Assembly (NCBI GenBank): GCA_004431415.1
Contig: QPMI01000455.1
Coordinates: 19,510 to 83,509 of the forward strand
Length of the DNA stretch: 64,000 bases
Reading direction: 5' to 3'
Source of the DNA: Cyanophora paradoxa CCMP329
Taxonomy: Eukaryota > Plantae > Glaucophyta
Shown: positions 166-63,420 of the stretch, piece after piece
Layout: the number at the start of each line of letters is the position of its first letter
How positions within the stretch are numbered: position 1 is the first letter of the stretch
Made by a program: the position numbers and the translations under genes
Notes under the pieces: generated by a model
Database searches by the model: none
Seen by the model: the letters and a program-made list of their open reading frames with translations, nothing else
What the model was told of the DNA's origin: nothing

Positions 166-3100
166 TTAATTAAAAGGAACAGAATTAATACCATCTGGTA
201 AGATGTATCTCTTTGCATCAAAGCAGTTCAGGGCAACCCTTCTACTCACAGTGTCTATTATTGTGTGATCTGCCCTTCTCTTCTGCTTGGCAGTCACAGT
301 CTTGCTTATACCTGCAAATAAACACTGCTTAAAATCATTAAATTGGAGTTCCTCAGTTGAAGTCCCAGAGAGCTTACTTCTCTCAATCTCAGCAGTTCTG
401 AAACTGTAAACTTTGGCTCTCAGACCCACATATTCCAATATAGCAGAACCTGGCATCTCATTTTTGTATTTACCTGGGGTCATTCTGTTGGATCCCCCTA
501 GGTCCAGATTATAGGATATATTATCTAGGTCCTCTTGGAGGGTCTTAGATTCGATATATAGACAAAAGGAATCAGTATCATGGAATAGTAACTTGGCTTT
601 TGTCCACTGGGTCCTTACAGTATCATAAAAGAATTGGTAATTATGCAGTTTGGCAGCATCCAAAACATAAGCCCCAATTGCAACAGGCTTATCTAGTTTC
701 ACATGCTTTGTGTAAAACTCAAAGGCAACTGCTTTTTCGTTTATGGGGCTGGTTGATTTCACCAATGGAGAGGCTGCATATTTCATAAACAGTTTCTCAC
801 TGTTTGCAATCTTAACCACAGATCTACCTCTGCAAGATTCAATGCATTTCCATAGATTGAGTTATTCATGAGTTTATAGAAATCAGCCTCGAATTTATTC
901 ACTGCTTTCCTTCTCATCTCAGTGTTCAGCTCAATGTAGGGTTTCATTACAGGAGCCACAGTAAATGATAGGACCCTGTGAACTTTCTTTAATTTCACCC
1001 CTTTGTCCAACAGATATTGCAGAAGAGGCTCAGAAATCACATAGTTTGCCACAGAACCAAAGGTTGCAGTTAGCTTTGGGGTTTTATCAAGCTCTTCTCC
1101 TGAGAGATCTAATAGGCTCTTTTGATATTGTGATAATTCCGCATATTCTACTATTTTCTTGTTAATAATTAGGGGAAATCACTGTGATCTAGAAACAGCC
1201 TAATTGGGTAATCCAGATCAACTTCTAGGAAACTGGATCTGTTATCTTGTGGGTTGAATTCGGTCTCCCATCTAAAATCACCAACTGGAATTGGCTGACT
1301 CAAACAGTAGCCATACAAGTTGTTAGCATCAAACAGCATAATGTGGGAGTTTTCACCATCAGCCTCAGCATACCTACAAGGCATTGTTGCAAAGCCACCC
1401 TGATTCCCTCTCAACAAATTCGTATTGCTCTACATCACTTATAAGCTCTATTTTTGCCTTGGTGGTCCTAAGCATAGCATCCCAAGATAACCCAGGGGCA
1501 GATACATAATGAACTGGGTCAAGTCCATATACTGAGTGTGAAAGCCTTCTGAAGGCTTGGAATTTGTTCATTAACTCATCTACATCAGCAGCTCCAAAAT
1601 CCATGAAATTACTTGCATCAATGAACTTGTAAAGACCCCATTGCAATGAAAGGTATTGATCAAAGTTTTTCGAAAGGATTTCGATTCGCTTTTTATCTCC
1701 CAAACCTGCTATTTTTCTGAAAATGAATGACCCACAGTCATCCATTTGGTCAACAACCACTGCTACTTTGGTTTGCTTTGAGATTCTCCTATGGAGATTG
1801 CAGTTTCTGCAAGCAGGAGCAATGTACTGACCTGTGTGGTGATCATGATCTCTGCATTTAAAGTTCTCCTTGGTGAACCTCTCACTGCAAAGGTAACAGT
1901 GTTTGGTAGCTCTGTAAATAGCCTTTTGCTCATCTGTGAGTTCATTCATGGGAATATTGGTGAACAGGAAATCGATTAGTTCTCTAGCTTTGGACTCCAA
2001 GCATTCAAACAGACCTCCCATTGGATCCTGCCCCTCAAATCGAAACTCCTGAACATCTGCCCCAGTGACTATTCTAATGTTGACTGCTGAGACTTCCCTC
2101 TTGGATTTCGATGCATCAATGGGGATGCTTCTATGTTCAATCTTGCAGTAGACCACAACAGGAAGCCATACAGTTTTCCTAAGGTTTTTGAGTCCAAACT
2201 CTATGGTGGTCTCAGGTTTTGGTGTGATTCCCTTTGAGAGTCTCCAATCAATGCATCTGTTTGAGTCCACATGAGCAGTCAGTTTAGCCTCAGACCTGAA
2301 TCGAGATAAGCATGTATCACAGTAGTGTAACTTTTGATCCTTGGTTTTATCAAGGGCAACTCTGAGAAGTCTTGAAAGGGACATGATAGTAATATAGTGA
2401 CCATTCCCTTCATCATCATGAATGAGCATTAGATTAATCTTTTGCTTTCTGCCTGGGTTGCTGGATTGATGTAGGGGATATATAACATCTCCATCCATTC
2501 CAAATATGTTTATGCTGATGCCTGCATTTTGAGATTCGAATTTATCAATGATTTCAGCATCACAAGGAACAGGGAATGGGATATTGTCGAAATTGAGAGC
2601 CAAAGGATTGTATGTGGTTGGTGAGTATTTCCATTTGCGATATTGTGTAAGCTCACTTCTCTTGTGGGAATTTACATCTTTCCTATGGATCCATGCCAAA
2701 ATGGCATTTTCAAAGCAAGAATCATCAATATTTCGAATATTCACTGTGGCTCTCTTGGCTGCAATTGATTCTGGTGTTTTAACATAGCAGCCACCAGTTG
2801 GGGCATAACTCATAATAGCAACTCTTAGCATTTCGATTCTCTCCAATCGATAGCTATCAACAACATTCATCTGTTCCTGACACATTTGGGCTGCTTTATT
2901 CAGCTCAGTTCGAATATTTCTCGATTTGGTTAATACAAAATAATCGCTGTAAATGTATTTCGATATCCAAACCTGTGGATTGCTGACTTTTACGAACTTG
3001 CAGATAAACGACAAGCGAACTTTGATTGCCCTGAATTGATCCAGACTATCTCTTAAACGTTTTGGTAGAGAGGTTGCAATTCTATCTAAATATTCAATCA

Positions 3101-3407
3101 CATCTACCACAACTTCCCTTCTGGCTCTGTATGTGAGCCAGCGATATAATTCATTCATGGCTGTTCCATCTTCTGCCTCTGGTTCTATTTGCCTCAGGCG
3201 ATCGAGTTCATCAAGAGTCTCAACTTTGTCATAGAGGTTATTGGCTTTTCTGGTTAATTTTGCTAAAGTGGGTCTGCCCCTTGAAATAAATCCGATTTCC
3301 CGGTCATATTCAGCCTCTGTGATTTCATGGGCTGCATACAGTGTTCCCAGTAATCCCATAAGTTCCCATTTCTTCTCTCTAATGAGTCTGTTGCTAATTC
3401 GGGGCAT
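166..3407 (-). CDS. polB: Protein-primed family B DNA polymerase (Polinton/adintovirus type), split by frameshifts
   Basis: ORFs 1374-3407, 1169-1417, 783-1052 and 166-819 join up: EndoVII-like CYLC..RDHDHHTG..CRNCNL, LDPVHYVSAPGLSWDAM, motif A FDANNLYG, motif B KLMNNSIYG, motif C FHDTDSF, GLRAKVYS. Confidence 0.93.
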
Positions 3408-3462: not shown

Positions 3463-3516
3463 CAAAATTTGATGAAAACTACTTAAAGAAATATCTTCTA
3501 TATATATAAAAGGACA
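3463..3516 (+). promoter_or_regulatory. Putative early promoter motif AAAA(A/T)TGA...CTTAAAGA...TATATATA
   Basis: Near-identical block recurs upstream of the ORFs at 4389, 4856 and 7404, and in copy B. Confidence 0.6.
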
Positions 3517-4332
3517 ATGGCAGAGAAGAAATCGTATTGCCTGGAAAAGCTCAAAGCGGCTTTAATGTTGCTTTGTGGATCTGATAACTTCAATGATTAT
3601 GTTGCTCTTGGAAGTAACAGGAAACCGCTCCCTCTTTGGGCAAAGCTTGCAAAATATGGATTAAGTGACTATGACCTGCCTCCAGAGTCTGAGCATTGCG
3701 CCTGTGATCATCCAATTAAAGAGCAATGCTATATTCTGCATGTTAATAAAAAGATTGTGGTCATTGTTGGGAATTGCTGCATTTTACGATTTATTCCAAA
3801 GGGTGCCAGAGGTCAAGATATATGTGAAAGATGTGGAGATCGGCATAAAAACCGAAAGGATAATTTCTGTAATAAGTGCAGAATCGCTTTAAAGCAAGAA
3901 GAACTGGAAAGAAAAAGAGAACTTGAAAAACAAGAGGAAGCTCGAAAGAGGCAGCTTGAATTAGAAGAAAGAGAGCGAAAACAGAGAGAATTAGAACAAG
4001 AAAGAGCAAGGAATAAACATGCAGTTAACCTTTTCCTGATTTGGAGCAACCAGTTTATTCCGAAAATGGATAATCTTCGCAGAGATGATATAGAGAGGTT
4101 CAGAGAGGGCAGATCTGCATTGATTGAAATGTATGCAGAACTCAGTACAACAAATACATTGGTTGCTGGGTTTCAGGTGCCTTATCTTAAAAAAGATATC
4201 GCAAAAGGATTAGATTGCAGATGGAATAAGGACAAGAAAACATGGGAGACCTTGGAAATCGAACCATTTGTAGCATTGCTAGGTAAGCATTTCAAACTTA
4301 TGTATATTGAGCGATTTGGACAAAGAGGTTAG
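3517..4332 (+). CDS. Cys-rich zinc-finger / coiled-coil protein with C-terminal DUF5710-like motif
   Basis: CACDHPIK..GNCC, CERC..CNKC, E/R/K coil, VPYLKKDIAKGLDCRWNKDKKTW; conserved in copy B. Confidence 0.65.
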   Translation: MAEKKSYCLEKLKAALMLLCGSDNFNDYVALGSNRKPLPLWAKLAKYGLSDYDLPPESEHCACDHPIKEQCYILHVNKKIVVIVGNCCILRFIPKGARGQDICERCGDRHKNRKDNFCNKCRIALKQEELERKRELEKQEEARKRQLELEERERKQRELEQERARNKHAVNLFLIWSNQFIPKMDNLRRDDIERFREGRSALIEMYAELSTTNTLVAGFQVPYLKKDIAKGLDCRWNKDKKTWETLEIEPFVALLGKHFKLMYIERFGQRG

Positions 4333-4777: not shown

Positions 4778-4855
4778 ACAAAAAATGATTGGGGGACCCA
4801 AAACTACTTAAAGAAAAATCTTCTATATATATAAAAGGGACCCCGATCGCTGAAA
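4778..4855 (+). promoter_or_regulatory. Putative early promoter motif
   Basis: caaaaaatga..aaaactacttaaagaaaaatcttctatatatataaaagg, nearly identical to 3475-3513. Confidence 0.6.
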
Positions 4856-7183
4856 ATGAACGCCAAACAGACCAAGTTAATTAAATCGCTCGCTAACTGG
4901 CTTCGTTCTGATGAGGAACTTGCCAAAAACATGATTATCCCAGTGAAACCTGACAGCAAAGACCCAGTTTTCAAGCATAAGGGAGGTGCTTGGTCCTGGG
5001 AAAAGTATGAGGAAGCGCTGGCAACTAATCAGTATGTATCTTGGGGCATTCTGCTCTCAGACAACATGATGGTTATTGACTTTGATGATGAGGAGGACTT
5101 TGAGAAATTCCGAGATATGTTTCCTGATGACTTTGATGCCAATCAACCCATGGCAAAAACTAAAAAAGGCTATCATGTCTACTTTAAACGACCTGAGGAG
5201 TTCAATAAACTCCAAATCACCGATAAGGCTCCAGGCTTTAAAGGCTTTGAAAAGGTTGACCTGAAAACAATCACTGGAACTGGAACTTCTGGATTAATTA
5301 ATGTTTGTCCCAGTGTCAACAAGACCTGGGTAATTGCTCCATGGGATGATACCTGTGATTTCAATGAGCCTACTGATGAGTTTAAAAAGTGGATTGCAGA
5401 GAACTATATCTATAAGAGTGAGTATACTGCTAGTGCTAGCTCAAATGATGAACTGGAAAAGAGTATTCTTAAAGAGCTGGTGGATATGGGCTTTATGCAT
5501 CCCAATATAATCTCTAAAACTGAACTGGGCTTTAACTTTGATGCTGCCAATAAGGGACTCAATTGCCCATGCTGCAATGGGTCACATGAATCGAATAACT
5601 GGTATGTTATGAAAGCCAAAGGGGAAGATAAAAAGTATATTGTGTCCAGCTACAGTGGCAATTGCAAAAAACGATTTATCTTCATTGGAATGCAATCTGA
5701 TATCTTCAATCTCATTGATAAATCCGCTGGCTCTGGAGGCGCTCATTATGATGTCAGTCTTGTGTGCAAAGAGGTCCTACAACACACTTGGAGATACTCC
5801 AAAAAGTCATGGTTCAAACTCAATACTGATACTGGGATTTGGGAGCATGATGACACAAACCAAAAGATTTACCTAGATATTAGTTGCCTTGTTGTCCCTC
5901 AATACCTTGGCAGGGCTGTGCATTATATCCAAAGAGCTTTGAAGGATGAAGAGAATAGAACAGCTTTCGAAGAGAAATCGAAAACATTAATTTCTATTGC
6001 CAAAAATCTTAAACAATCAGGATATCGCAAATCCCTTCTGACTGATTTGCTCCCTCTGCTCAATGATGATGAGTTCTATGAGAAGATTGATACAGTTCCA
6101 TATGTTATTGGATTCGATAATGGTGTGTTTGATCTGACAACTATGACTTTCAGAAAGGGTAAACTGGAAGATATGGTGAGCAAGAGTGTGGGTTATGATT
6201 ATACTGACAATGTGGACCCCAAGAAAGTGGAGCATCTCAACCAGATTTATAGAGAGATTGTAGATGATCCAGCAGAGCGAAACTATCTTCTGGCATCTAT
6301 TGCCATTGCTTTGAGTGGATCAACAAAATCACAGAAGTTCTACATGTGGACTGGTGCTGGTGCTAATGGTAAATCACTTGTTCAGGAATACTGCAAACAG
6401 ATATCTGGGGCTTATTACAGCCCTCTCGAAATATCCTATTGGACCAAACCTAAGAAGAACTCATCAGATGCTACCCCTGAACTTGCCAAACTCCTGGGAA
6501 AGCGACTTGTATTCAGTAATGAGGCTGAAGATGGTGATAAACTGCAAATTTCCAAGATTAAGGAGGTTACAGGTGGAAATGAAATGACTGTGAGAGCCTT
6601 GTTCAAAGACCCGGTTATCCTTACCCCAATGTTCCAGGTTTACATTACAACTAATGACAATTTGACTATAAATAAACCAGACTTTGCAATTCAAAGAAGG
6701 CTTTCATACCAGAGATTCAATAATATATTCAGAGAGAAGCCTGAAGCTGGTCAAAAGAAAGCTGACCCAACTCTGTTCACACTTCTTCACAATGATGATG
6801 AGTATAAGATGGCTCACATGAAGATATTACTGGATATGTGGAAGAACAAAGAAGTTGAAGAGATCTTAAGAAATCCCCCTCAATCGATTATTGAGCAGGG
6901 AATAAACTTTATAGCTGAAAATGACAAGATTGGTGAATGGCTTAGGGATAATTTCGAAGTTACCCATAATGCAAACGACTTTGTTTCGAGTGATACCATT
7001 TACAAATCATACAGAAGTGTCGATGATAAAGTTGAATGTGTTTCTGTGATGAAGAGAGTAAGGGAAATCTTCAATGTGAAATCAGAGGTTAAACGAATTC
7101 AGGGAACCAGAGCAAGGGGCTACATTGGACTTCGAAAGATAACAAGGGTTCAAGAAGACAATGGAGAGGATGTTGAATATTAA
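4856..7183 (+). CDS. PrimPol (AEP) primase - Zn finger - D5-like superfamily 3 helicase
   Basis: VIDFD and TKKGYHVYF primase motifs, CPCC..H..C, IGFDNGVFDL (D5_N), Walker A GAGANGKS, FSNE, ITTN, AIQRR. Confidence 0.92.
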   Translation: MNAKQTKLIKSLANWLRSDEELAKNMIIPVKPDSKDPVFKHKGGAWSWEKYEEALATNQYVSWGILLSDNMMVIDFDDEEDFEKFRDMFPDDFDANQPMAKTKKGYHVYFKRPEEFNKLQITDKAPGFKGFEKVDLKTITGTGTSGLINVCPSVNKTWVIAPWDDTCDFNEPTDEFKKWIAENYIYKSEYTASASSNDELEKSILKELVDMGFMHPNIISKTELGFNFDAANKGLNCPCCNGSHESNNWYVMKAKGEDKKYIVSSYSGNCKKRFIFIGMQSDIFNLIDKSAGSGGAHYDVSLVCKEVLQHTWRYSKKSWFKLNTDTGIWEHDDTNQKIYLDISCLVVPQYLGRAVHYIQRALKDEENRTAFEEKSKTLISIAKNLKQSGYRKSLLTDLLPLLNDDEFYEKIDTVPYVIGFDNGVFDLTTMTFRKGKLEDMVSKSVGYDYTDNVDPKKVEHLNQIYREIVDDPAERNYLLASIAIALSGSTKSQKFYMWTGAGANGKSLVQEYCKQISGAYYSPLEISYWTKPKKNSSDATPELAKLLGKRLVFSNEAEDGDKLQISKIKEVTGGNEMTVRALFKDPVILTPMFQVYITTNDNLTINKPDFAIQRRLSYQRFNNIFREKPEAGQKKADPTLFTLLHNDDEYKMAHMKILLDMWKNKEVEEILRNPPQSIIEQGINFIAENDKIGEWLRDNFEVTHNANDFVSSDTIYKSYRSVDDKVECVSVMKRVREIFNVKSEVKRIQGTRARGYIGLRKITRVQEDNGEDVEY

Positions 7184-7242
7184 ACAAAACGATTTATGAT
7201 TGAAATGTATATGTAATTTTTATAGCCTTACTGGAAATGGTG

Positions 7243-7336
7243 TTGTTCACAGGTGTCACAGGTCCATCCCATCTAGGGGGCTATAAAACGAAAAATGACC
7301 AGGGGACGATAAAAACCTGTGAACACCTGTGACACC
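7243..7336. repeat. Palindromic iteron-like element (TCACAGG units), putative origin
   Basis: tgttcacaggtgtcacaggt ... acctgtgaacacctgtgacacc directly after the primase-helicase gene. Confidence 0.7.
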
Positions 7337-7403
7337 TATCGAAAAAGACCAAAATTTGACAAGAATACTTAAAGCTTACTTGATTGTGTATAGTGGAGAC
7401 AAA

Positions 7404-7625
7404 ATGGCAAAAACTCTTGATGAGATGACCATGAATGAGTTAGATAAATGCATAAAGCATGGAGATATAGGGGCATATATCGAAATGTCACAGAGATTGA
7501 TAGGTTACAATATGTATGCAGCAAAACCAAAGAGAAATAGATCAGTAAACATTCACATAACTGTTTCAGTGTCTGAGAATGCAAACAAAAAACAACAAAA
7601 GCATATTTACAAAAGTTATCTGTGA
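7404..7625 (+). CDS. Small hypothetical protein
   Basis: ATG at 7404 preceded by caaaatttgacaagaatacttaaag; frame conserved in copy B. Confidence 0.6.
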   Translation: MAKTLDEMTMNELDKCIKHGDIGAYIEMSQRLIGYNMYAAKPKRNRSVNIHITVSVSENANKKQQKHIYKSYL

Positions 7626-7718
7626 CTTGCAATTGATTGCAAGTATAAAGCCAATTCCTTTGTATATATTTTTATAGCTGCCTCAGTGGCATACTGAGAC
7701 CGCTTTTGCTCAATTATC

Positions 7719-9006: not shown

Positions 9007-9787
9007 TATAAACCGCGTTTATATCGCATCAATTTATTGCTATGGACTTGGCTTTTCACTTCTTTGGGGCTTCCTCTTTCTCTGGTGGTTTCAGTTCATC
9101 TTCTTTCTTTTTTGGCTTCCTGTGGAAGCGAGGAAATGGGAAATCTTTCACAAGCTCAGCTTTATCTACATAGTATTTAACTGAGTAGTTTGCAGAGGAC
9201 CAAATGATATACTGATAGGAGTGAACATACTCTTCAAACATCTTGTAGAAATCCTCTTTATTTCGCATTATATTGTATTCTTCCTCTATGGCTTCCAGTT
9301 CTTTGCGATTTGCAGCACTTAGAAACATTGCATAATCCGAATTTACTCGAATAGTCGAAGAGACTTTTCTTAGCTTTTGTGTGATGCAGATAATGGATAT
9401 TTTCGAATGGCGACCTCTGGAATACAGAGATCCGATTATTTTATCCCTTGTGAGATCGACTATCTCATTATCGATTAAATCATCTAAAACCACACACAAT
9501 TGGTTAACAGGTTCACCTTTCTCTATTTTCTCTTGCCTCTCATCTAGCAATTTAGCAATGTAAGGGGCATCCCATTTTCCCAGTTGCAGTGTTGCCACTT
9601 TATCCCAGAAATGATTGAAGCTGGTTCCACTCACAACTAATACAACATCAATCTTTTTGGCATCATGTAATTGCTTTAACCAATACTTTACAGCTTCTGA
9701 TTTACCAGTTGCTGATTTTCCTATTGCCAATACACGAAATGGTGGTTCTATCATTTCACCAGCCACAAATTCATCCAAATCAGTCAT
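9007..9787 (-). CDS. A32-like (FtsK/HerA) genome-packaging ATPase
   Basis: Walker A GKSATGKS, Walker B VVLDD, SRGRH, ITQ, IRVN; frameshift near the 3' end relative to the 260-aa copy B ORF. Confidence 0.92.
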
Positions 9788-9852
9788 TGTTGTATATCTT
9801 TCTTAATAAAGACATATAAAAATAATGCAGGGAGACTGAAAATCGTAACAAT

Positions 9853-11223
9853 CTATAAATTAATTCTGCGTAAACCATCTTTGTCCAAAATTATATAGGA
9901 ATGCATGAGAGCGCGAACATTAACATCGATTACCTTATCTGAAGGCATGTAGAGGGTGAGGAAGGAAGAAGAGGAATTTGTTAAATCAACATAACCAGAC
10001 TGGGCAATATTTCGAATCGCCTTCTCTCCATCAATGCAGAAACTTAAACCTGAAAGGACATATTTATCTGCGACCTTATCCATGTTAGAGCATTTGAAGG
10101 CATCAGCAATTAGCTCAGCACCTTTGAGTAGGGAAATTGGCTCAGTGGCAAAAAGTCGCTGTCCATTAATTTCAACAGTGAAAGTAATATCTTTGGAGTT
10201 AGCATAGGTCTTAAGAACACTGTGGGAGCCATTGGATTTGTCAACAGTTTCATGATCACGAACTGAAACAAGCAGAGCATATACAAGACCTGAGATTTGA
10301 GAGAGGTTAATTCGATTGGGTTGGGCATTGCCCTTGGCAGGGAAAGCACTAGCATCTACAAATCCAATATCAAGGGAGGGAATAGCCATGCCAGTTGTCT
10401 TAACCTTTTCAATGACAGTAGCGAAAAGCTCATCAGAAACATTAATAGCATGCATGTAAAGGCGAGGAGAAGTAATAGAAATAACAGGAGTTGTTGCACC
10501 AAGACTGAAAGTTGTGATATTTTGACCAACATGGGCGAGTGTGGCATTAGCAGTATCACCAAGACCATCATCTTCTGTCTTATCAGCAACTGTCCCACCA
10601 ACAACAGGGAGAGAGCGACCACCATAGGAAGTTTCAACATAACCCTTTCCAGCATCCTTAAACCAAACAGTAACAACCATTTCACCAGATAAAGCACCAA
10701 GGGGAAGGTAGTGATTTAGCCAAGGCACAGGGATTTCAACAAAGAATGAGCCACCAAGGCGGTTGGTTCCATGAGCAGGGATGCCATGAACCATGCCCAT
10801 TGATCGCTTCTTTTTAGCTAGTTGATCCTCCGAATAATAGACCAGGGGGAAATGAGCAAGGAAATCAGATGGAATATGGTAGGTGTAAGATCCATAGGTA
10901 ATTTCAAGTCGCTGAACTAAAGCACCAACTGGGCGAGTGTATCCATTGCGAACTAGGTCAGTATCACCAGCAAACGTGATGGCTGGAAGGTCGAAAGCAA
11001 GTTCGAGTTTTCCACAGAAATTGTAGCGAGGTAGCTTGAAGGAAATGCGATTTCCAACATTATTCTCAAAAGTATTGCTGGGATTCACAACAACTAGAAC
11101 TGGCTTAGATTTGGATTCGAGACCAAGCATAAGGGAGTTATCCAGGAAAAAGGCTTTCGCCTCTTCTGGGGTTGTTAGGGCTTCTTTCAGCGAAAGTCTT
11201 TGAAGCGTGGAAGTGATATCCAT
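9853..11223 (-). CDS. Probable double jelly-roll major capsid protein
   Basis: ~456 aa from ATG 11223, beta-rich, ISFKLPR..LELAFDLP..LVQRLEITYG pattern, located between ATPase and penton-like gene. Confidence 0.75.
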   Translation of the reverse strand: MDITSTLQRLSLKEALTTPEEAKAFFLDNSLMLGLESKSKPVLVVVNPSNTFENNVGNRISFKLPRYNFCGKLELAFDLPAITFAGDTDLVRNGYTRPVGALVQRLEITYGSYTYHIPSDFLAHFPLVYYSEDQLAKKKRSMGMVHGIPAHGTNRLGGSFFVEIPVPWLNHYLPLGALSGEMVVTVWFKDAGKGYVETSYGGRSLPVVGGTVADKTEDDGLGDTANATLAHVGQNITTFSLGATTPVISITSPRLYMHAINVSDELFATVIEKVKTTGMAIPSLDIGFVDASAFPAKGNAQPNRINLSQISGLVYALLVSVRDHETVDKSNGSHSVLKTYANSKDITFTVEINGQRLFATEPISLLKGAELIADAFKCSNMDKVADKYVLSGLSFCIDGEKAIRNIAQSGYVDLTNSSSSFLTLYMPSDKVIDVNVRALMHSYIILDKDGLRRINL

Positions 11224-12315: not shown

Positions 12316-13248
12316 ATGAACCGGCTCGTTAATATTGATAGCAGGGATAGAAGCCAAGGACAAAATGAAAACTCTTACAGGGTCACCCTCACAACTCCAG
12401 TAGAGAGACCAAGGGAATGTAGGGTTCTCTATGCAGAGATTCCAAACAGTATCTATAACAGTGTGGGAACTGATCATCTAACAGTTCAGTTTAATTACCA
12501 AGATGGTTCATATAACCAAGTGATCACACAACAAGTGTATCCCCTTCCCAGTGGCTACATCAATCAGGGTCATTTTGGGGTAACACACCCTTATAATTAT
12601 GGGCTGAACTATTCAAGCTTCCAAACCATTGCAGGCAAAACAGTAGCTTTTGAGTTCAAGATATTCTATAACCCAACTACCTATAAAGTGGAGTTTTACA
12701 GTAACCATGAGTTTCGTTTTATTGCAAGCAACCAGAGAATAGGAAAGCTTTTGGGTGTAAGTTCTACTGAATACACCACTGGGTATTATAGCACTCCTCC
12801 TGTTGGTGGATCTCCCTATCGACCTGAGAACCTTTTAAAGTATGATGGCAAACCTATTACACCTGATCACCCAGCATGGGGAATCACCTTCTCAGGACCC
12901 AGACTCTCCTCTAAGCCCTTGCAATATTATTTTGACAGCAGGAAGATGTCTGATATGAATGCTGAGCAGTATCTGTACATGCATATTAAAGAGCTGTCCC
13001 CCTTTGCCAGCAGACACAATATAATTCCAAAATCGCAACCACAAAACCAGGGAGCTATCCTTAGATTGCAATTGAGTAAAGATATAGGGGGCTATGTTTA
13101 CCATAGTGGTGAACATGCAGAATTTATTCAAATCAATGACAGAAACCTGGTGATAAGGGAACTCACAGTTGAGTTTAAAGATTACTTTGGTGAACTGATT
13201 GATATGAATGGAATCGATAATTCTTTTCAGTTGGAGTTTATCGAATAA
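12316..13248 (+). CDS. Minor capsid (penton-like) protein 2
   Basis: VNIDSRDR..YRVTL..AEIPNS at the start and LTVEFKDYFGELIDMNGIDNSFQLEF at the end, typical single jelly-roll penton pattern. Confidence 0.75.
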   Translation: MNRLVNIDSRDRSQGQNENSYRVTLTTPVERPRECRVLYAEIPNSIYNSVGTDHLTVQFNYQDGSYNQVITQQVYPLPSGYINQGHFGVTHPYNYGLNYSSFQTIAGKTVAFEFKIFYNPTTYKVEFYSNHEFRFIASNQRIGKLLGVSSTEYTTGYYSTPPVGGSPYRPENLLKYDGKPITPDHPAWGITFSGPRLSSKPLQYYFDSRKMSDMNAEQYLYMHIKELSPFASRHNIIPKSQPQNQGAILRLQLSKDIGGYVYHSGEHAEFIQINDRNLVIRELTVEFKDYFGELIDMNGIDNSFQLEFIE

Positions 13249-14792
13249 AGGCACCTGTAAAGTCAACTCTCATTGTGGGAGCATTCACATACACAAGGGG
13301 ATAAATGCGAATATATCTTATTCTCAGAGAATAACCTATGTAAAAAGCATCCTTGATGCTGAGAGGGAACCCACTCAATAGAGCCACATCACCAGAGTTG
13401 TGAGCATTGTTAATGTTCTCACAGACATATATTTTGTTTTGCCCATCTGATCGAATAAAAGACCAGTTGATCCCATCAGTGGATGTTGCCACATTGAAAG
13501 TCTTAATAAAAGCATTGGTGTCCCCTGATCCATAGGCAATCACAGAGGAGAGTTCAAAAGTATATGGAAAAGCAACTTGAAGGTATTCAGTGGGGTTTCC
13601 CATATCTGTTCAGGAGCATAGGCTCCAGCTTCCCAGCCAAATGCTGAAGGTCTAGCCATGAAAGGCTCTTTACCTGTCACAGAGGATGAGGCAGTAAAGG
13701 CATCATCTGCAAGCTGATACCAATTGGCATCCAAAGGAGGTGATGTAGTGAGAGTGGATGAAATGTAAGCCTTTGAAGGGTTCTTTAGTTCATAGTTTGC
13801 TACTAGTAGGCTGCAAAGCTTATTGATCATATCATTGTTTGCTGCAATGTATGTTTCAGTGAATGCAAGCATGTCTGGGATCTTAGATGTGTCATCCAGG
13901 GAGCTTACTATATGATTTGGAAGAGGGACTGATAACCTATAGTATCTCCCATAATCCTGATCATAGTTGTAGGGTAACAACTCCTCCATCTTATCAAGGG
14001 CAGAAAGCTCACTTGCAGCCATGAGCATGTTAATCAATGGGCTTCCATCTGTTGAGGCAATCCATGAGAGAATACCCCAGCTGTTGACAGTCTCATAAGC
14101 ATAACCCACATAATCAGACTCTAAATATGGGTCCACCTCTCCACAAGAGATGCTTATTACTATAATATCATCATCATCACTGTAAATCTTCTTTGCATGG
14201 CTGTAACCACACACACTGGGATTATTGTTTCCCGAAATGGCACCATCAATGAGACAGACATATACTCCCCGATTGAAATCAACAATGCTTACAGGAGAGA
14301 AATATGTAGGAGCAGCAGAAGTAGCCCTAGCAGCAATCTTACAAGGCATAAAGTTGTAATTGTTGTCATTTGTGATAAATATTGGTTTCATATTCTGAGT
14401 ATCAAAGGATGTGATCACAATGTCCTTAAGGGAATCCTGTATTAGTGATTCACCAGTAACTGAATTGATTGCAGTCTCCAAGGGTCCCACATCATACTTT
14501 GTGTTAAATAGGGCATTTTCAATGATATTTCGAGGATTTGCGAAAATCAAGGGCAGTTGAGTTAGGTAAATATTGTGTAAATCGTTTGCTGTCAGTTTAG
14601 GTTCACCTGGTTTATCAGGATGCCTGATGTTTAACCCAATAGCAATGATCCCACCAGTGGAAGTTCCACTCACAAGATCCACAAGATCGATTATTCTCCT
14701 GCCAGTTCGATTTTCGATTTCTTTGAGCAGCCTGGTTATGATAATGCCCCTTGCACCTCCCCTGACAAACTGAGAACTACTTTGAGAGGCAT
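13238..14792 (-). CDS. Patatin-like phospholipase fused to discoidin (F5/8 type C) domain, frameshifted
   Basis: GGGARG, GTSTGG, ATSAAPTYF, DGA; C-terminal EYLQV..STDGINW..RYIRIYP..MRVD; intact 518 aa in copy B. Confidence 0.88.
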
Positions 14793-14835
14793 CTTTTACT
14801 TATCAGGAATTTTATAAATCCATATAGTAAAAGCC

Positions 14836-17800
14836 ATGAGCTTCAATTACCCACCCAATCTAGAAACCATTCAAGATGATAATGCAAGCAGCACCAAGCA
14901 TGTGAACTTTGATAATATTAAAGTAAAGGGTTCAGTTTCAATTGACCACAGCTCTGATAATTCATCAAAGACTCAATCAAGGGAGCATGCTTTATCTGTG
15001 AATCAAACCGATCCAGATAAAGAGGATGTCAGTGTTGCTTTTAGTTTGGGTAATGTGAAAGCAAACCAAGTGGCAGAGATCAAAGCCACCAGAAGGAGAC
15101 CTAGGAAACTGAAAACCAGTGGCACTCACCCAGATATACCTTCCAGGTTCGATAGTGGTCGATTGATTTTCAATGTTCAAGATGAGCAGGGCAAACAGAA
15201 CACAGCTTTACGAATTTACAATGAGGGCAGCACTGCAAAAGCTGAGGTCCCCCAAGTATTGCAAGTGGGTCCCATTGCCAATACAAATCAGGTCTCCTAC
15301 ACAAATGATGTCTACCCCAAGGATATTACATATGACTTTGCAAGAAATGAGCCTTTTGGGTTCTTTACTCCAAAAGATGTCCATCAAAAAAAGCCATCAA
15401 TTACAATCAACAGTAGCCCCAGTCAACCAGTAGCAATCCATTTGCATCCTGATTTAGTCGAAATGGATAGGCACCTTTTGCCTTTGTATAGCAATGTGAA
15501 AGACCTTGGAATTAGAACCAGGCAATGGCGAAATATCCATGGCAGCAATGTGTATGCAAATGGGGAGAAACTTGTGAGTGAGAAAACTCTAAGGGAAATA
15601 ATTGAGCATTATGGTCCCAATGGACCAACAGTTCCATTCCCTATTCCATTTCCAAATGGACCTCCCGATTTAACACCAAAGAAACAGCCTGGAAGAGAAT
15701 ACACAGCAACTGAAGATGTAGCCTTTGGGCAGCATATTGTGAGTTGGGAGCAAGTTCGCAATAAACCTATAATTGAACCCAGAAAGCAAATAGATGAGCA
15801 GTATTTACCTCCTGAAGTCGATATATTAGAGCTTGATGAATATCAATTCGTTCCAGATGAGGAAGAGTATTTACCAGATGGTTTCGACCCACAAGAGTAT
15901 GAATATGATCAATATGACCCCAATGAGGAGGAAATATTACCAGATGGCTTAGACCCACAAGAGTATGAGTATGAGCAGAACTATGAACCCCATGAGGAGT
16001 ATTTAGCAGATGGACATGATCCACCAGCTGTTGATTATGAGCAACCTTATGAACCCCATGAGGAATTACTACCAGATGGATTTCGACCTGAGATCTGGGA
16101 GTTCTTTCCTGATTATGAACAAATTAATAATAAACCTGCAAAGTATCCCCCAGAGGATCACAATCATGATTGGGATGAGATCTTAGGCAAACCTCAAAAG
16201 TATCCACCAGAGGATCACAGGCATGATTGGGGTGAAATTGATGGGATTCCAACTGAGTTCCCACCAAGCAAACATGAACATACTTGGGATGAGATCAATG
16301 AACAACCAGAATTCGCAAAGGTGGAGCCTCTTGATAACTTGGGGGTTTCTCTTTACCAGACTTGTAATATCCCTGAAAGAATCTTTTTGAATGAACACTA
16401 TGTACATGTGAATGGGACACTTGCAAATTCAGCTATGAGAGGACCACTTCATATTAGGACATTACCAGGCTCTTTTGAAACCCCACCACCACCAGGAGCA
16501 ACCATACCAAATATCTTTGTGTCAAGCTACATGGAGGCTGACATTCCCACAGATACATTCAGAGTCCCAACAGACCCAGCAACCTACCAAAATTACAACT
16601 CTGCTATACAGGTTCATGTAGCAGATGTAAGCAGTTTAGATGGCTCAAGACCAATGATAGTTTTCAGTCGAGATAAGTATTCCTACATTCCCATAGTGGG
16701 AACTGCAAATGATAATTATGGAAGGGCAGAGCTTGCATGGATTAAAACAGATTATGGTGGGGTTCTGGAAGCCAATCAGAGGATGGCAGCAAAAAACATA
16801 CACAATGAAAATATTTCGAGAGTGGTCACAGAGGATTATCTAGAAGATCAAGGATATATTGATGAAGGTGAACTCACAAATATTCTTTCTCTTTTTGTGA
16901 TCAAAAATGACACAAACCTTACAGTCACTTCCAATATCTACACCAGTAACCTTTATACAAGTAACATTTTCACAAGTAACCTATGGGCAAGTAACATTTG
17001 GACAAGAAAACTATGGGCAGATGATATTTACACAAGTAATCTTACAGTGTATCGAAATATAACAATTGGAACACAAAATACTATACAAATACTTTATAGA
17101 CCTTACTATGCTGTTACTACTGTCATTGATCCAGCCCCAATTATTCCAAATTGTATATTTGCATGGAAAGCATCAGGTCAACATGGTCAGTTGATATATT
17201 ATCAAGGTCAGATATATAACAGAGTTACTACACAGATACCATATCTAACAAATTATTCGAATTGGGAAACTGTTTATTATTATTTGAATGCAACCCTAAA
17301 CAATCAAATTTCGATTGGGAAAGAATTAAACATGGCTTATAGGAATAGTGTTTCAATAGATTGGTCATTAGGTCTTACATTATTCTTTATAGGTAGGATC
17401 AATACAACAAACCCTTCTTATATGTTGAGTATAAGGGATAGTTCTTATCAAAATTGGATTGGATATGGTTGTAAAAATCAAAAGTTTGGTGTTTCACTAC
17501 AAATTCAAAACGATATAGAAAATGCAACTCCTCCATTATTCGATGCATCATATATTGTTAATTCGTGGAATTATTGGGATTTCACTGTTTCCTCAGAGCA
17601 AATTGTCGTAGGAATGGGTGGTATTGATATTGGAACATCATCGGGTGATTTTCTTCCACCTTCTAATTTTGCATCATTTGGTTCTTCTGTTGCTAATGGA
17701 GATCTTGCCGAAATTATCGTTTTCAATCGTGCGTTATCTATTGAAGAAAAGAACGCGGTTAGATATTATATACAATTATTGTATGGATTTCCAAATACGC

Positions 17801-20777
17801 AGCCCATATTGAATAATGAAGATCTTAAAATTAATTCGAGCAATATATTTATTGAAAATCTCACAGTTACCAAAAATGCAACTCTACCACATCATCCAAC
17901 ATCGAATGTTGTTTTAGATTGGTTAGCAAAACAAAAACACACAAAAGCAGATATTACGGATTTCGCCCATACTCACACAAAAGATCAAATCACAGATTTC
18001 GCCCATACACACACCAAAGATCAAATAACAGATTTCGCACATACTCACACAAAAGATCAAATAACAGATTTCGCACATACTCACACAAAAGATCAAATAA
18101 CAGATTTCGCACATACTCACACAAAAGATCAAATAACAGATTTCGCCCATACTCATTTATGGGAGCATATCACAAATCCTCCGTTAACCTTCCCACCTGA
18201 TTCACACACTCATGATTATTCAGAGATTACAAATAGCAACCACAGGCACCCATGGAGCGAAATAGATCAACAGCCAGTATTTGCACAATTGAATGCGATT
18301 GGAAATGTTTTCAATGGAGTCACACTTTACCAATCCAGTAATACACCTGAAAGGTTATATTTGAATGATCATTATGTCAGTCTTAATGGGACTTTTACAG
18401 GTGAAACAGGCACACCGATGGTGGGAACTCTTGCAGTAAGATTACCCAGGGATCCAATCGTAAATGGAGTGTATAGTGGCGATTTCAATGTAGGAGTAAA
18501 CGATACTTTCCCCAGTATCTATGTTACGAATTATCACCCAGGAGAAATAGGACAAGTAGCGGATTTTTCAGCAGCTATTCAAATTAACGTAACAGATCAA
18601 AGCGCATATGATGGAGCAAGACCTAAAATAGTATTCACAAGGGAGAAAGTTGTAAACTACCTTCCTGTAGCAGGACAACCCACAGATGATCATGGGAAAT
18701 GTGAGATTGCATGGATAAAAACGACATCAGGTGGCGCCTTAGAAGTCAATCAGAGGATGGCAGCAAAAAACTTACACAATACAACCCTTTCCGGTGTTGT
18801 TACAGATGATTACCTAACCAATAAAGGGTATCTTACAACAGCAGATTTAAGCAGCTATGTAACAGAAAGTGAATTGGGAACGACTCTAAATAATTATACA
18901 ACAGATGCAGAGTTAACAGCAGCTCTAGGAAATTATTTACCTCTTACAGGTGGGACAGTTAATGGAACTGTAAACGCTACTAGTCTACAAATTGGTGGAA
19001 ACACAATTCCAAAAGGATATGATTTCGATCAATTAGATGTAGTATCAACAGATAGAAGCGCAAATAATTGGAATTTGAATTGGTCACCAAGAACAGGACA
19101 AACAGGATGTTATACAACACCACAAAATGATGAAGATTGTAGCGGTTGTTTTATGAGGTGGACTGTCCCCACAGGTATGAAATCATTTTATATTCAGCAT
19201 ATGCCTTGGTATAATGGCAGATATTTTGATATCTATGGTCAGACTCTCAATAACAATCAGCATTTCTTAAAACGTGTAAACGATTATCAAGGAATACAGT
19301 CAGTAAATCATGATGGGACAAATAATACTATCTTGTTTGTATCAATTAATTGCGAGTTTTACAAGTATATTTATGTTCAAGGTCGAAAAGGTCGCATTCA
19401 TCTCACAGGAGTTTTTGGTTGGAGTAGGCAGAGGGCAACAGATAATGATGTTGGTATGATCTCTTGGGATAATATTTACAGTCGCCCCGCATTAATTACA
19501 GCCGCAGACCTCCCAGGAACGGCAACATGGGCAACAAATACATGGTTAAAATCAACCGACACTGTTCCGCGAATTTGGTTTGGAAATGGTGATTGCACAT
19601 ATATTCGAGGTTATGGAAATGGTGATGGTGTTTCAATTGAATTCAGAGACTCAGCAGATGGAGCAATATTAAAGTCTTATAACAATGGTAACTTTTGGGT
19701 GAAAAACACTATTACAGCACCCACTATTAATGCTACTACCAAACTCCAAATAAATGGTAATGATGTCCCAAAGTTTCACACATCGGATTCATCAAAAGGA
19801 GGAATTGAATTTAATAGATGTTCTTATAACGATTGGACATGGGCGTGGAGTGCAGCATGGGATCCATATTATAATTATGGTTCATATGTTTATAATAATC
19901 AAACGGATGATCAAACTTCAACCGCTTGGATAGACTTCGATATTCCAGAAGGATATCTCAAAGGAACAGCGTTTTTAACTTATCTACCTTGGACTAACTC
20001 ACGAATTTTTGAAATTTGGGGAGTGAATCGACAAGGAAATGAAGTTTTTATTACATCAGTGAATAGTTATCATCCTTATTCTACATCTCCGGATGGTAAC
20101 CACAGTGGTTTAAATAATGTTCCTATACATCTTGGTAATCGATTTCTCACAATTCGAATTAGACCAAAGATTGGAAGAGTTCATATTATGGGTATAAGTT
20201 ACATGAAAATTTGGGTTGGACATAGTTATGGTGGTCACACCGGCTATATTCATTGGAATAATGTTTATAGTAAACCAAATATCTTAACAGGAACTGTGGG
20301 GACTTGGTTTAATTCCAGTGATGGATACCATCGTATTCATTTCGGAAATAACACCTCTACATACCTGAAAGGAAGGGGAAATTATCCAATTGTATTTCGA
20401 AATGAATTAGATTCTGATGTTTGTTGGATTGATCATGACGGGCGGATGTGGATAAACAATTATTTAACACAAGGAAGTGACATAAGATACAAAACAGATA
20501 TTAAAAAGATAACCGGCGCTCTCAAAGCTGTTGAGAAATTAGAGGGAGTGAGTTTTAAACGAATTGGAAGTGAAAAAGATGGAGTTAAATTAGGTTTAAT
20601 TGCACAAGATGTTCGAAAGGTAATACCAGAGGTAGTTAATGTTAAAAAGACGATGGCTACCTATCTCTTGAATACACAGGTTTAATTCCAGTTCTCATTG
20701 AAGCTGTGAAGGAGTTGTCCCAAAAATGCAAAGATCTACAGGATCAAATAGACCAAATTAAAAATGTCAAAGTATAA
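14836..20777 (+). CDS. Large fibre/spike protein with HxH repeats, LamG-like domain and C-terminal peptidase S74 chaperone
   Basis: SDIRYKTDIKKI..GLIAQDV..PEVV; frameshift at ~20645 restores LIPVLIEAVKEL; GDLAEIIVFNRALS; YLPLTGGTVNG; HTHTKDQITDFA repeats. Confidence 0.85.
17938..18156 (+). repeat. 36-bp coding tandem repeat (HTHTKDQITDFA x5 plus partial units)
   Basis: Directly visible tandem repeats. Confidence 0.95.
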
Positions 20778-20780
20778 TAA

Positions 20781-21086: not shown

Positions 21087-21125
21087 TTGCAGTTTATTTT
21101 TCTTTCCTTCTTAGTAAAAGAAGCA

Positions 21126-21970: not shown

Positions 21971-21993
21971 AAGATATATCCCTTTAATGTAAA

Positions 21994-22830: not shown

Positions 22831-22852
22831 GAATATTGGTTATATATAGAGT

Positions 22853-23125: not shown

Positions 23126-23148
23126 TTAATTTTTCTAAGGTATTCTTA

Positions 23149-24375: not shown

Positions 24376-24659
24376 ACACATAGTAAAATGCGGAGTTTTA
24401 ACCAGAGGCAAGATCTAATTGAGATTCAGTTATATTATTCGGAAATATATACAGATTATCGATAGACTCAGTAAGACTAATCGGAAAATAAGAGAAATTT
24501 ACGATAAAATATCGAAAAGAATACAAAATAATCGAAATAAATGAATATTCGATAAGATATACACAGATTATCGATTGATTGAAATAGAATATACGAGATA
24601 TATCAACAAAATCAATTAAGATTAAGCCGAGGGTTAAAACTCCGCATTTTACTATGTGT
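24376..24659. repeat. 284-bp terminal cassette bounded by 28-bp inverted repeats
   Basis: acacatagtaaaatgcggagttttaacc (24376-24403) and its reverse complement (24632-24659); very AT-rich interior. Confidence 0.9.
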
Positions 24660-37097: not shown

Positions 37098-37500
37098 GTG
37101 TGACAGGTGTGACAGGTCTATCCCAAACTTTTGATAGTTCATTTTTATGTTATAGAAAAGTTTGGGATAGACCTGTCACACCTGTCACACAAACCATATT
37201 CAGTAAGGATCTCTTTTAATGTTAAAATTTCAGTGTTAGTTGGTGTAGTTGATTCACAAAATGCATCCTGTCACACCTGTCACACAAACCATATTCAGTA
37301 AGGATCTCTTTTATAATGAAAAACTCAGTAACAATAAGTAAGAAGTTTATCTATGTAATTCTACTTGAATAAACAAATGAAATAATCGAGTGTGACAGGT
37401 GTGACAGGTCCATCCCAAACTTTTGAGAGTTCATTTTTATGCTATAGAAAAGTTTGGGATAGACCTGTCACACCTGTCACACAAACCATATTCAGTAAGG
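37098..37500. repeat. Expanded iteron-like region: two ~35-bp-arm palindromes plus a half site (TGACAGG units)
   Basis: gtgtgacaggtgtgacaggtc(t/c)atcccaaactttt ... aaaagtttgggatagacctgtcacacctgtcacac at ~37098-37190 and ~37390-37482; half site at ~37267. Confidence 0.85.
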
Positions 37501-55042: not shown

Positions 55043-55150
55043 AGGTGTGACAGGTGTGACAGGTGTGACAGGTCTATCCCATCGATTTTGAAAATCAACT
55101 TTTCACCAGGGCTTTCCTTGGATAGACCTGTCACACCTGTCACACAAACC
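55043..55150. repeat. Palindromic iteron-like element (TGACAGG units) after primase-helicase
   Basis: (ggtgtgaca)x3 ggtctatcc ... ggatagacctgtcacacctgtcacac. Confidence 0.8.
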
Positions 55151-55204: not shown

Positions 55205-57523
55205 TTAATATTCGGCATCATCTTCATTGTCTTCCTGAACCCTTGTTATCTTTCGAATCCCAATATATCCTCTGGCAAGAATACCATTAACTCGTTTTCT
55301 TTCCGATTTAACATTGAAAATCTCCCTTACTCTTTTCATTACAGATACACATTCAACTTTATCATCAACACTTTTGTATGATTTGTAAATGGTATCACTG
55401 GAAACAAAGTCGTTTGCATTATGAGTAACTTCGAAATTATCCCTAAGCCATTCACCAATTTTATCATTTTCAGTTATAAAGTTTATCCCTTGTTCAATAA
55501 TCGATTGAGGGGGATCCCTTAAGATCTCTTCAACCTCTTTGTTCTTCCACATATCCAGTAATATCTTCATGTGAGCCATCTTATACTCATCATCATTGTG
55601 TAGAAGTGTGAACAGAGTTGGGTCAGCTTTCTTCTGACCAGCTTCTGGCTTCTCTCTGAATATATTATTGAATCTCTGGTATGAAAGCCTTCTTTGAATT
55701 GCAAAGTCTGGTTTGTTTATAGTCAAATTGTCATTGGTTGTAATGTAGACTTGAAACATTGGAGTAAGGATAACTGGATCTTTGAACAAGGCTCTCACAG
55801 TCATTTCATTTCCACCTGTGACCTCCTTTATCTTGGAGATCTGCAGTTTATCACCATCTTCAGCCTCATTACTGAATACAAGTCGCTTTCCAAGGAGTTT
55901 GGCAAGTTCAGGAGTAGCCTCTGATGAGTTCTTTTTAGGCTTAGTCCAATAGGATATTTCGAGAGGGCTGTAATAACGACCAGATATTTGTTTGCAGTAT
56001 TCCTGAACAAGTGATTTCCCATTAGCACCAGCACCAGTCCACATGTAGAACTTCTGGATTTAGTTGATCCACTAAGGCAATTGCAATGGATGCCAGAAGA
56101 TACTTTCGCTCTGCTGGATCATCCACAATCTCTTTATAAATCTGATTGAGATGCTCTATTTTCTTGGGGTCTACATTTTCAGTATAGTCATAACCCACAG
56201 TCTTGCTCACCATATCTTCCAGTTTACCCTTTCTGAAAGTCATAGTGGTCAGATCAAATACACCATTTTCGAATCCAATCACATATGGAACTGTGTCAAT
56301 CTTCTCAAAGAATTCATCATCATTCAGCAGTGGGACCAAGTCAGTCAGAAGGGATTTGCGAAATCCTGATTGTTTAAGATTTTTGGCAATGGTCATCAAT
56401 GTTTTGGATCTTTCTTCGAAAGCTGCTTTGTTTTCCTCATCCTTTAAAGCTCTTTGACTATAATGCACAGCCCTTCCAAGGTATTGGGGGACAACAAGAC
56501 GGCTTATATCTAGGTAAATCTTTAGGTTTGTGTCATCATGCTCCCAAATCCCAGTATCAGTATTGAGTTTGAACCATGACTTTTTGGAGTATCTCCATGT
56601 ATGTTTCAGAACCTCTTTGCATACTAAACTCACATCATAATGAGCGCCACCAGAACCAGCGGATTTATCTATAAGATTGAAGATATCAGATTGCATTCCA
56701 ATGCAGATGAATCGTTTTTTGCAATTTCCACTGTAGCTTGACACAATGTATTTGTTATCATCTCCTTTAGCTTTCATAACATACCAGTTATTCGATTCAT
56801 GTGAACCATTGCAGCATGGGCAATTGAGTCCTTGTTAGCAGCATCAAAGTTAAAGCCAAGTTCAGTTTTAGAGATTATATTGGGATGCATAAATCCCATA
56901 TCTACCAGCTCTTTGATAATATTGTTTTCCAGTTCATCATGTGAGGTAGCATTAGCAGTATACTCACTCTTATAGATGTAGTTATCTATTATCCACTTTT
57001 TGAAGTCATCAGTAGGCTCATTGAAATCACAGGTATCATCCCATGGGAGATTACCCAAGCCTTGTTCACACTGGGACACACATTGATCAGTCCAGAAGTT
57101 CCAGTTCCAGTGATTGTTTTCAGGTCAACCTTCTCAAAGCCTTTAAAGCCAGGAGCCTTATCGGTAATTTTGAGTTTATTGAACTCCTCAGGTCGTTTAA
57201 AGTAGACATGATAGCCTTTTTTAGTTTTTGCCATGGCTGATTGGCATCAAAGTCATCAGGAAACATATCCGGAATTTCTCAAAGTCCTCCTCATCATCAA
57301 AGTCAATAACCATCATGTTGTCTGAGAGCAGAATGCCCAAGATACATACTGATTAGTTGCCAGCGCTTCCTCATACTTTTCCCAGGACATGCACCTCCCT
57401 TATGCTTGAAAACAGGGTCTTTGCTGTCAGGTTTCACTGGGATAATCATGTTTTTGGCTAGATCTCATCAGATCTGAGCCAGTTAGCGAGCGATTTAAGC
57501 GATTTAGTCTGTTTGGCGTTCAT
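55205..57523 (-). CDS. PrimPol-SF3 helicase (copy B), several frameshifts
   Basis: Fragments 55205-56044, 56022-56777, 56774-57079 and 56989-57234 match copy A. Confidence 0.88.
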
Positions 57524-62141: not shown

Positions 62142-63162
62142 ATGCCAGCAACTGGAAGAATAGTTAGGAGAACCACTGAGCAACTGCAAGGGACCTACTG
62201 CCCATCACAGTTCCAAAGGAGGAAAGGGGAATCTCGAATTGTAAAAAAGTCAGAGATGAAGAGCTGTCCAGTAGAGATCCCAGTTGCTATTGCAGTGAAA
62301 GAAACAGCAGATTGCCAAGAGATTCTATGATGTGAGAACTGGTTACAAAGGCTTCAAGCTATGAGGGCTGAGTTACCTGATGAATCCTATAAGCAGTTGC
62401 AAGAGTTCTACAAGAAACAGGAAGTTGTTCAGATCAATGCACCTGCTATATCTAGGAAGAGAGATCCCATGGTCCCAATAAGGCAACCCTTGATACCTAT
62501 GTGATTGATTTGCTCTTTTCCCAGCTTATAAGAAACAAAACAATGGCTATGATACATTTATGACTGCAATGGAATCAACACTGAGAACTGGGATATTATA
62601 CCTATAAGGGATAAATCAGCTCTCACTACATTAGCTGCATTTAAGCAGCTTGAAATGAGAGTGCAAGACCCATAGTAAGGTTCAATCAGATGCTGGAAGT
62701 GAATTCCAAAATCGAATATTCCAGGAGTATTTATCTAGTAAATACATAGAACACCAAGTGAGTGGAACTGCTGACCACAGAAGCCAAGGTCGAATTGAAG
62801 CCTTTAACAAACAGATTAAGAGACTGATCACAAACTACTGCATAGCCAATTAACACAGCTAGATTCTTTGATGTGTTAGGTGATATTGAGTATAATTACA
62901 ATAATACAGTCCACTCAGCTACTAAGATGAAGCCAGGCGAAACTACAGAGGAGCATTATAGGTATATAGTGGGATTAGAAGATGAAGATTCAAGAAATCA
63001 ATAGCTTACCTTGATACCATGCAGCCTGGCATGTTTGTGAAGTGAAGTTGAGAAAACCCTTTGCTAACAGGTAACAATTGGTCTAGGATGGTTTACACTG
63101 TTGATAGTAGGGAAGGCTTTAAGTTTAAGCTAAGGAGTCCCACTGGTGAGATCATAGAAAGA
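62142..63162 (+). CDS. Polinton-type rve integrase (copy B), frameshifted and 3'-truncated
   Basis: Reading across frameshifts: YVIDLL, QSDAGSEFQN, SQGRIEAFNKQIKR, YNYNNTVHSATKMKP. Confidence 0.85.
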
Positions 63163-63420
63163 ATATGGTTTGTGTGACAGAAACTAGCCTCTCCATTGGT
63201 GAAATCAACAATAACACTGAAATTTAACATTAAAAGAGATCCTTAGTAGACTTGGTGAAAGACTAGCCTCTCCATTGGTGAAAAAAGAAACACTGAAATT
63301 TTTGGCAACTGCTTTTCGTTTATGGGCTTGTTGATTTCACCAATGGAGAGGCTAGTCTTTCACAAGTCTACTATACGTCGAGTCCTCTGGGCTAGTCTTT
63401 CACCAAGTCTACTATGGCAA
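63163..63420. repeat. Patchwork of short direct and inverted repeats at the copy B / copy C junction
   Basis: ctagcctctccattggtgaaa three times (one inverted); ~38-bp stem 63245-63283 / 63335-63373; pieces matching polB and the 37.2-kb repeats. Confidence 0.8.

Follow-up and report, generated by a model that had tools for sequence, protein, structure and literature searches.

A putative SaPI/P4-type helicase-origin module with two alleles in a Polinton-like virus of Cyanophora paradoxa

Described helicase-origin systems and the element in the window

The alpha protein of phage P4 has two separate cis sites, ori and crr, and we know of no paired P4 alleles that differ by a one-base change. In the SaPI protein PriRep5, the wing is reported to lie in the major groove of three iterons of 7 bp separated by 2 bp, and wing mutants are reported to lose binding (bioRxiv 10.64898/2026.10.17.759575). 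SaPI Rep1 is described as discriminating poorly between origins in vitro (PMC9371898). In the Vibrio satellite PLE, swapping of ori and RepA_N is attributed to an origin-directed nuclease of the phage (PMC8263062). Co-variation of origin and binding domain has already been described in the bacterial satellites PLE and SaPI. The wing of RFX is reported to contact the major groove (PMC2533330). How Polinton-like viruses start replication is described as largely unknown (bioRxiv 10.64898/2026.07.28.741278). Inverted repeats near the primase-helicase gene have been proposed as its origin in Polinton-like elements that differ from ours in having tyrosine recombinases, and the available text of that source holds no mention of iterons, winged-helix reading or paired alleles (PMC11296320).

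The window, i.e., the whole 64-kb stretch of DNA analyzed here, holds two inverted copies of one element, A and B, which are about 93% identical and are separated by Ty3-like and DIRS-like retroelements. The features that define the element are:

before 1 to 24659: copy A, with its left end outside the window
36562 to about 63200: copy B, inverted relative to A
166..3407, minus strand: family B polymerase-like gene of copy A, split among four frames as assembled here
9056..11223, minus strand: copy A genes for an A32 packaging ATPase and a double-jelly-roll-like major capsid protein, marking the identity of the element
24376..24659, unstranded: right terminus of copy A, bracketed by a short inverted repeat
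62659..62850, plus strand: rve integrase-like fragment of copy B, 64 aa

Judged from its sequence, the element is Polinton-like. Its ATPase matches Pox_A32 in Pfam (E 4.5e-11), and the capsid protein resembles Capsid_N/Capsid_NCLDV clusters in the Atlas (0.98), where family labels stand on <20% of the cluster members. In the polymerase-like gene we recognize, in separate frames, what we take to be PolB-like motifs, and searches of Pfam, PHROG and PDB gave no polymerase match. The rve fragment has a Pfam E value of 0.0054 (17.4 bits, below the curated cut-off of 32.6). A and B share one end, which terminates at the same base, and the other end of B is degraded.

Several further properties of the copies were observed. 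The accessory genes at 12316-23547 include a patatin and F5/8 domain, a 1949-aa fibre-like protein with Peptidase_S74 and an AdoMet decarboxylase-like gene. The observed/expected CpG ratio is 0.35-0.37 in both copies (1-24659, 36562-62297) vs 1.07 in the retroelement spacer. Between its capsid and ATPase genes, B carries roughly 1 kb of inserted sequence that A lacks (51552-52544) and that encodes a homing-endonuclease-like protein (PHROG 559, E 3e-68). Two genes lie just past the end of A, within 24654-26216: one is paralogous to the 21994-22830 gene and the other encodes an HNH-AP2 nuclease. They may be what is left of a related element that received the A insertion. A 39-bp AT-rich repeat, a candidate shared promoter, is found in front of the 271-aa gene and again in front of the helicase gene (3475-3513 and 4800-4838, with counterparts in B at 57541-57579 and 58847-58885). 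Other islands of A/B divergence lie at 21501-22000 (26-28%, a 263-aa gene), 20251-20750 (15%, where the long fibre-like gene ends) and 10501-10750 (17%, the capsid gene).

The primase-helicase wing and the repeat modules

The gene and its variable segment are placed as follows:

4856..7183, plus strand: primase-helicase of copy A, 775 aa with Prim-Pol, D5_N, SF3 ATPase and C-terminal winged helix
7088..7111, plus strand: wing of copy A, residues 745-752, VKRIQGTR, within the predicted hairpin 743-748 / 751-757
55205..56044, minus strand: 3' frame of the copy B primase-helicase, intact, with wing RKRVNGIL

Pfam domains of the A protein (Prim-Pol, D5_N, DUF5906), together with PDB sequence matches, indicate a primase fused to an SF3 helicase; as assembled here, nine 1-bp gaps disrupt the B gene upstream of its intact 3' frame. 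An earlier note, made from the sequence alone, had described five substitutions within eight residues near the C-terminus next to a sparsely diverged helicase core. Both observations are borne out, as the changes from A to B are V745R, I748V, Q749N, T751I and R752L, while residues 497-696 carry 30 synonymous vs 4 non-synonymous changes. The tip has one additional change, L759I. Five changes in eight residues have P=0.0012 over 279 codons and 0.021 within the winged helix and tail; under the strictest null, a label shuffle confined to the codons that had changed, P=0.16. In two of the wing changes all three bases of the codon are replaced, and the background is strongly synonymous. The tip bin is 18% divergent, which is not the maximum of the element.

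The same note took the variable segment to be the DNA-reading wing, and structure prediction agrees, as the modelled C-terminal domain adopts an RFX/P4-type winged helix with residues 745-752 in its beta-hairpin. The model of the A domain was built from 71 sequences (mean pLDDT 94) and shows three helices and a hairpin formed by 743-748 and 751-757. The single-sequence model of the B domain was poor (pLDDT 60, all helix) and was excluded. The last 106 residues of the A protein resemble Pox_D5/RFX clusters (Atlas, 0.95-0.96), and the C-terminal domain alone gave no meaningful PDB or Pfam sequence match and no Pfam Pox_D5 match. The best small-domain fold matches are RFX proteins: residues 214-285 of the model match the RFX1-DNA co-crystal 1dp7 (Z 10.2, rmsd 2.1, 70 aligned), the winged-helix part matches RFX5 (8zjr, Z 10.8), and the RFX5 wing can be aligned by hand without gaps on residues 745-754. 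RFX differs in being a cellular factor with an invariant wing. The likeness to phage P4 alpha lies in the match of the same model residues to its origin-binding domain 1ka8, which is middling (Z 6.6, rmsd 2.5, 71 aligned), and the whole model matches SaPI5 PriRep (7ola, Z 18.2). We infer from the model that residues 745, 747, 752 and 754 lie on one DNA-facing side of the hairpin. The A protein has V,R,R,R at these positions and the B protein R,R,L,R, and an arginine would thus cross the hairpin as the guanine of the repeat switches strand.

The repeat modules are:

7243..7336, unstranded: proximal module of copy A, inverted C-type 9-bp units, 2+2 across a spacer, about 60 bp past the stop codon
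24032..24123, unstranded: subterminal module of copy A, 2+2 C-type units, 28-bp stem
37098..37482, unstranded: subterminal modules of copy B, 10 G-type units in two complete modules and a half one
55043..55150, unstranded: proximal module of copy B, 2+3 G-type units
63160..63245, plus strand: degraded G-type module at the integrase end of B, inverted relative to 37204-37296 and 75% identical to it

The claim that repeats in A read TCACAGG and those in B TGACAGG was confirmed for 8/8 and 15/15 array units, respectively. The units of A lie at 7247 and 7256 (+), 7316 and 7326 (-), 24036 and 24045 (+), and 24105 and 24114 (-). Those of B lie at 55048, 55057 and 55066 (+), 55127 and 55136 (-), and ten lie within 37101-37479. 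A partial G-type unit, previously placed near 63172, was located at 63173, within what is probably the terminal-repeat partner of 37204-37296. A fold-back with a patchwork of short polymerase-gene pieces (63098-64000) starts right at this unit, and is either an assembly artefact or a rearrangement at that site. The one-base change is, as the earlier note had it, concerted over both arms and both distant sites (about 17 kb apart in A), i.e., all 23 array units follow their copy. TSACAGG occurs 43 times in the window vs 17.5 expected, a count reached in 0/100 shuffles; 23 matches lie inside the arrays and 20 are scattered without relation to copy type. Two of the four proximal units in A are GTTCACAGG, not TGTCACAGG. 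In A, the distal site is subterminal, with the element end (24659) about 520-630 bp away. Inversion of a module was considered as the source of the change and rejected, as by our reasoning it cannot convert a C-type to a G-type unit.

This arrangement resembles the SaPI system. Rep1/PriRep5 are likewise described as fused primase-SF3 helicases with a C-terminal winged helix, and the SaPI ori as short iterons directly after the gene, opposed across a spacer (PMC9371898); in our element, opposed iterons with at least two per side lie directly 3' of the primase-helicase gene. The 9-bp period is common to both (bioRxiv 10.64898/2026.10.17.759575). However, SaPI is a bacterial island with a 300-bp ori, 6-12 iterons and a central AT-rich region (PMC9371898), whereas the A/B element is eukaryotic and capsid-coding, with modules of 90-110 bp, 4-5 units, further modules close to its ends and an A+T content of 54-74% in the spacers (54, 57, 63 and 74% by hand count vs about 61% for the element). 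PLE is similar in that origin and DNA-binding domain are described as co-varying as a swappable module among elements that are otherwise alike, while the rest of the protein is common (PMC8263062), but RepA_N is another domain and whole origins differ, whereas A and B differ by one base and five residues.

Linkage of wing and repeat in the element and in other families

Twenty public runs of one organism contain at least half of the sequence words sampled, and the linkage of tip and repeat was followed over 6700-7700 in short-read contigs from four of them (X1, X4, X6 and X17), which may represent one strain. Two tip forms were found in 4/4 runs at about 1:1 (depths 707/889, 1947/2084, 1806/1964 and 1071/1075). 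In X1, X4 and X17, the A tip continues through both left-arm C units on one contig with one unrelated difference, and the X17 contig begins inside the tip. The A-tip contig of X6 is probably joined to C units as well (three differences, one of them unlisted). G units follow the B tip in X17 and probably in X6, where the contig continues into the arm indels of B; the B-tip contigs in X1 and X4 end at 7184. None of the listed contigs pairs a tip with the other repeat type, a linkage that the earlier note had proposed to test in more copies, although contigs drop rare recombinants and the statement holds among the contigs listed. The linkage of tip and repeat thus spans about 150 bp in these contigs, and linkage this tight is also expected from hitchhiking. 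In X6, the cleanest run, 6710-6943 and 7347-7687 each collapse to a single contig, so the split in that run comprises the winged helix and module only, i.e., a cassette. Tip-to-distal linkage over 17 kb is seen in the two window copies only.

Additional loose contig ends were observed in these runs. One at 7235 joins a distal-type flank to the proximal-type arm of A in 3/4 runs, so that a further C-type module variant exists and sites are copied from one location to another. Those at 6792, 6838, 6916 and 6953 come from a third, more divergent helicase family with contigs in the same runs.

The distal sites of A and B allow a closer comparison. Their flanks are 96-97% identical (8 mismatches in the 270 bases that lead up to and include the left arm, and 14 in 322 from the right arm on), and the unit centres amid these near-identical flanks differ in 4/4 units. 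The distal spacers of A and B are unrelated, as are the proximal and distal spacers of B. The distal spacer of A resembles the proximal spacer of B (25/39, p 0.0002) and only weakly its own proximal spacer (19/37, p 0.003). As the units of A distal and B proximal differ despite this resemblance, the base appears to track the element and not the descent of the module. In the two window copies, this favours a shared reader over simple copying.

No close relative was found in viral or metagenome contigs, and the nearest proteins are at most 40% identical. Opposed tandem units after the stop codon were found at 4 of 160 unique distant-relative loci with downstream DNA vs 0/800 shuffles, and most of the other loci are giant-virus core D5 genes without this layout. 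Three of the four (L390, L418 and L414) form a separate family with helicases 91-92% identical. Within this second family, L390 and L418 have the wing WSKLRTGNYY and the unit GTGGAGGGT in common while their backbones belong to different clades, and L414 combines the wing WKRLTNGGYY with the unit ATGTAGGG. The ten-residue block that holds the wing start is the most variable among 13 close relatives, and 17 wing forms occur in 49 proteins of the family. Pattern scans of viral contigs found the layout after about twenty further D5/P4-type genes with many different units. Pattern matches in genome contigs (120 loci) had few helicase neighbours.

Three observations from these contigs stand apart. 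L558 (1-2150) and L575 (3000-6100) are eukaryotic-virus-like contigs with a matching origin layout. L558 combines the wing KLRGGN with a GTGGAGGG unit, as in L390 (KLRTGN), despite a distant helicase. The gene after the origin in L418 (3693-4448) has a Cys-rich motif that by eye resembles the pre-helicase gene at 3517-4332 of the window.

A universal correlation of wing and unit was also considered. Over 25 loci, wing and unit similarity gave a partial Mantel correlation of 0.10-0.15 (p 0.04-0.10), and none in the same test without close kin (-0.01 to 0.07, p 0.23-0.55). Such a correlation is unsupported, as it vanishes over these loci once close kin are removed. A narrower rule, that Arg745 accompanies a G-type unit, was drawn post hoc from 302 loci with a GTNACAG core, 11 of which have an adjacent long frame and equal hairpin length, A and B included. 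Arg745 was found at 5/6 G-type loci vs 0/5 others (p 0.013); without A and B the counts are 4/5 vs 0/4 (p 0.04), and about 0.11 when kin are merged by hand. L139 and L095 are exceptions, being G-type without Arg745, and the C-type loci L023 and L030 have longer wings that may put an arginine at the 745 position. A fresh sample of 52 loci from 1203 genomes (50 usable frames) contained 0 tandem GTNACAG arrays. L696 (C-type, Gln745, Arg752) and L676 (T-type, Pro745) agree with the rule, both as non-G cases, while L665 and L673 have a different core and ambiguous orientation.

Alternative readings and the meaning of the two alleles

Collectively, our results point to a SaPI/P4-type helicase-origin module with two alleles in a Polinton-like virus. 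By analogy, the repeat units are very probably binding sites for the C-terminal helicase domain. That they are loading sites, or the origin, for their own primase-helicase, and that the A and B wings each prefer their own central base, is a reading we moderately favour.

The strongest alternative, which we consider unlikely but worth weighing, keeps the helicase sites but lets the protein tolerate any central base. A and B would then be two old cassette haplotypes with units homogenized by slippage and gene conversion, and the wing a fast-changing loop that happens to lie beside the repeat. The differing base is indeed the centre of a TGT-N-ACA palindrome, and the central base of the RFX half-site consensus is free, which favours tolerance. 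Wing and module are 150 bp apart, and sites are copied about, since proximal and distal modules have about 45 bp in common and the loose end at 7235 recurs in three of the runs. Wings also vary widely among all relatives, and the general correlation is absent without kin. However, homogenization does not readily account for unit centres that are uniform within an element whose spacers have not been homogenized. The phage arrays bear on both sides: in GTNACAGG arrays after VapE-like or D5 genes the central base is mostly uniform and in some arrays mixed, and where as many as a dozen units are dispersed, most arrays keep to either C or G, with mixed cases in L003, L012 and L027. Additionally, wing and unit stay paired across backbone clades in the second family, and two wing codons are replaced at all three bases although the background is strongly synonymous; both count against this alternative.

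A second alternative is that the palindromes are hairpins or sites of another protein (transcript end, integrase or host factor), with a link to the helicase that is positional only. Four of the five modules fold into strong stems (-32 to -42 kcal/mol, z -8 to -15), the inner arm palindrome reaches beyond the units, and the distal copies lie near the element ends, all as this reading would have it. It is nevertheless improbable, as the proximal module of A keeps its four units on a weak stem (-16 kcal/mol), one base common to two distant sites is left unexplained, and unrelated phages as well as eukaryotic elements have the layout after primase-helicase genes with a winged helix. Finally, long-read or assembly errors are an exceedingly improbable source of the C/G and wing differences: B does have many 1-bp deletions between 55 and 64 kb, and the fold-back patchwork at its end, but the differences are substitutions, mostly synonymous, and the recurrence of both tip forms in all four short-read contig sets excludes an artefact for the proximal site.

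The preferred reading, a helicase that recognizes its own repeats, can be put as a mechanism. By analogy with SaPI PriRep5 and RFX, primase-helicase hexamers would bind the tandem 9-bp units on each arm, with the wing reading the unit in the major groove. Loading would take place at the site after the gene and, again by analogy, at the subterminal copies. A and B would be two alleles of a wing-plus-repeat cassette that differ in base preference, and a wing change would then select for the matching base at every site of its element. As the element also has a polymerase B-like gene, an internal origin may be dispensable for it. The satellite-phage-like specificity switch proposed in the earlier note is thereby upheld in part: the P4/SaPI-type layout, the wing fold and the co-inheritance of wing and repeat agree with it, while a general correlation of wing and unit fails without kin. 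Strict exclusion or incompatibility between the A and B types is doubtful.

The earlier note knew of no description of such a switch for Polinton-like viruses, and no paper on wing-iteron pairing in Polinton-like or other eukaryotic viruses was found in the literature searched (main texts, mostly of open journals). The helicase-origin module is apparently undescribed in these viruses. Co-variation itself is known, and what is new is the setting in a eukaryotic virus and the resolution to one base.

The finding names a candidate origin, a candidate reader and a natural matched pair, and because the pair differs by one base and five residues, the open question becomes a simple binding test. Tentatively, one virus might be split into two replication-specificity classes within one host genome, with an arginine that tracks the origin base pair; the Arg745-guanine rule would then be valid in unrelated phages, the code readable and such classes widespread among Polinton-like elements. 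If it is true that the types do not cross-replicate, this would explain the coexistence of near-identical endogenous viruses as classes. The pairing would also offer a route to the origins of uncultured Polinton-like viruses and virophages by sequence alone.
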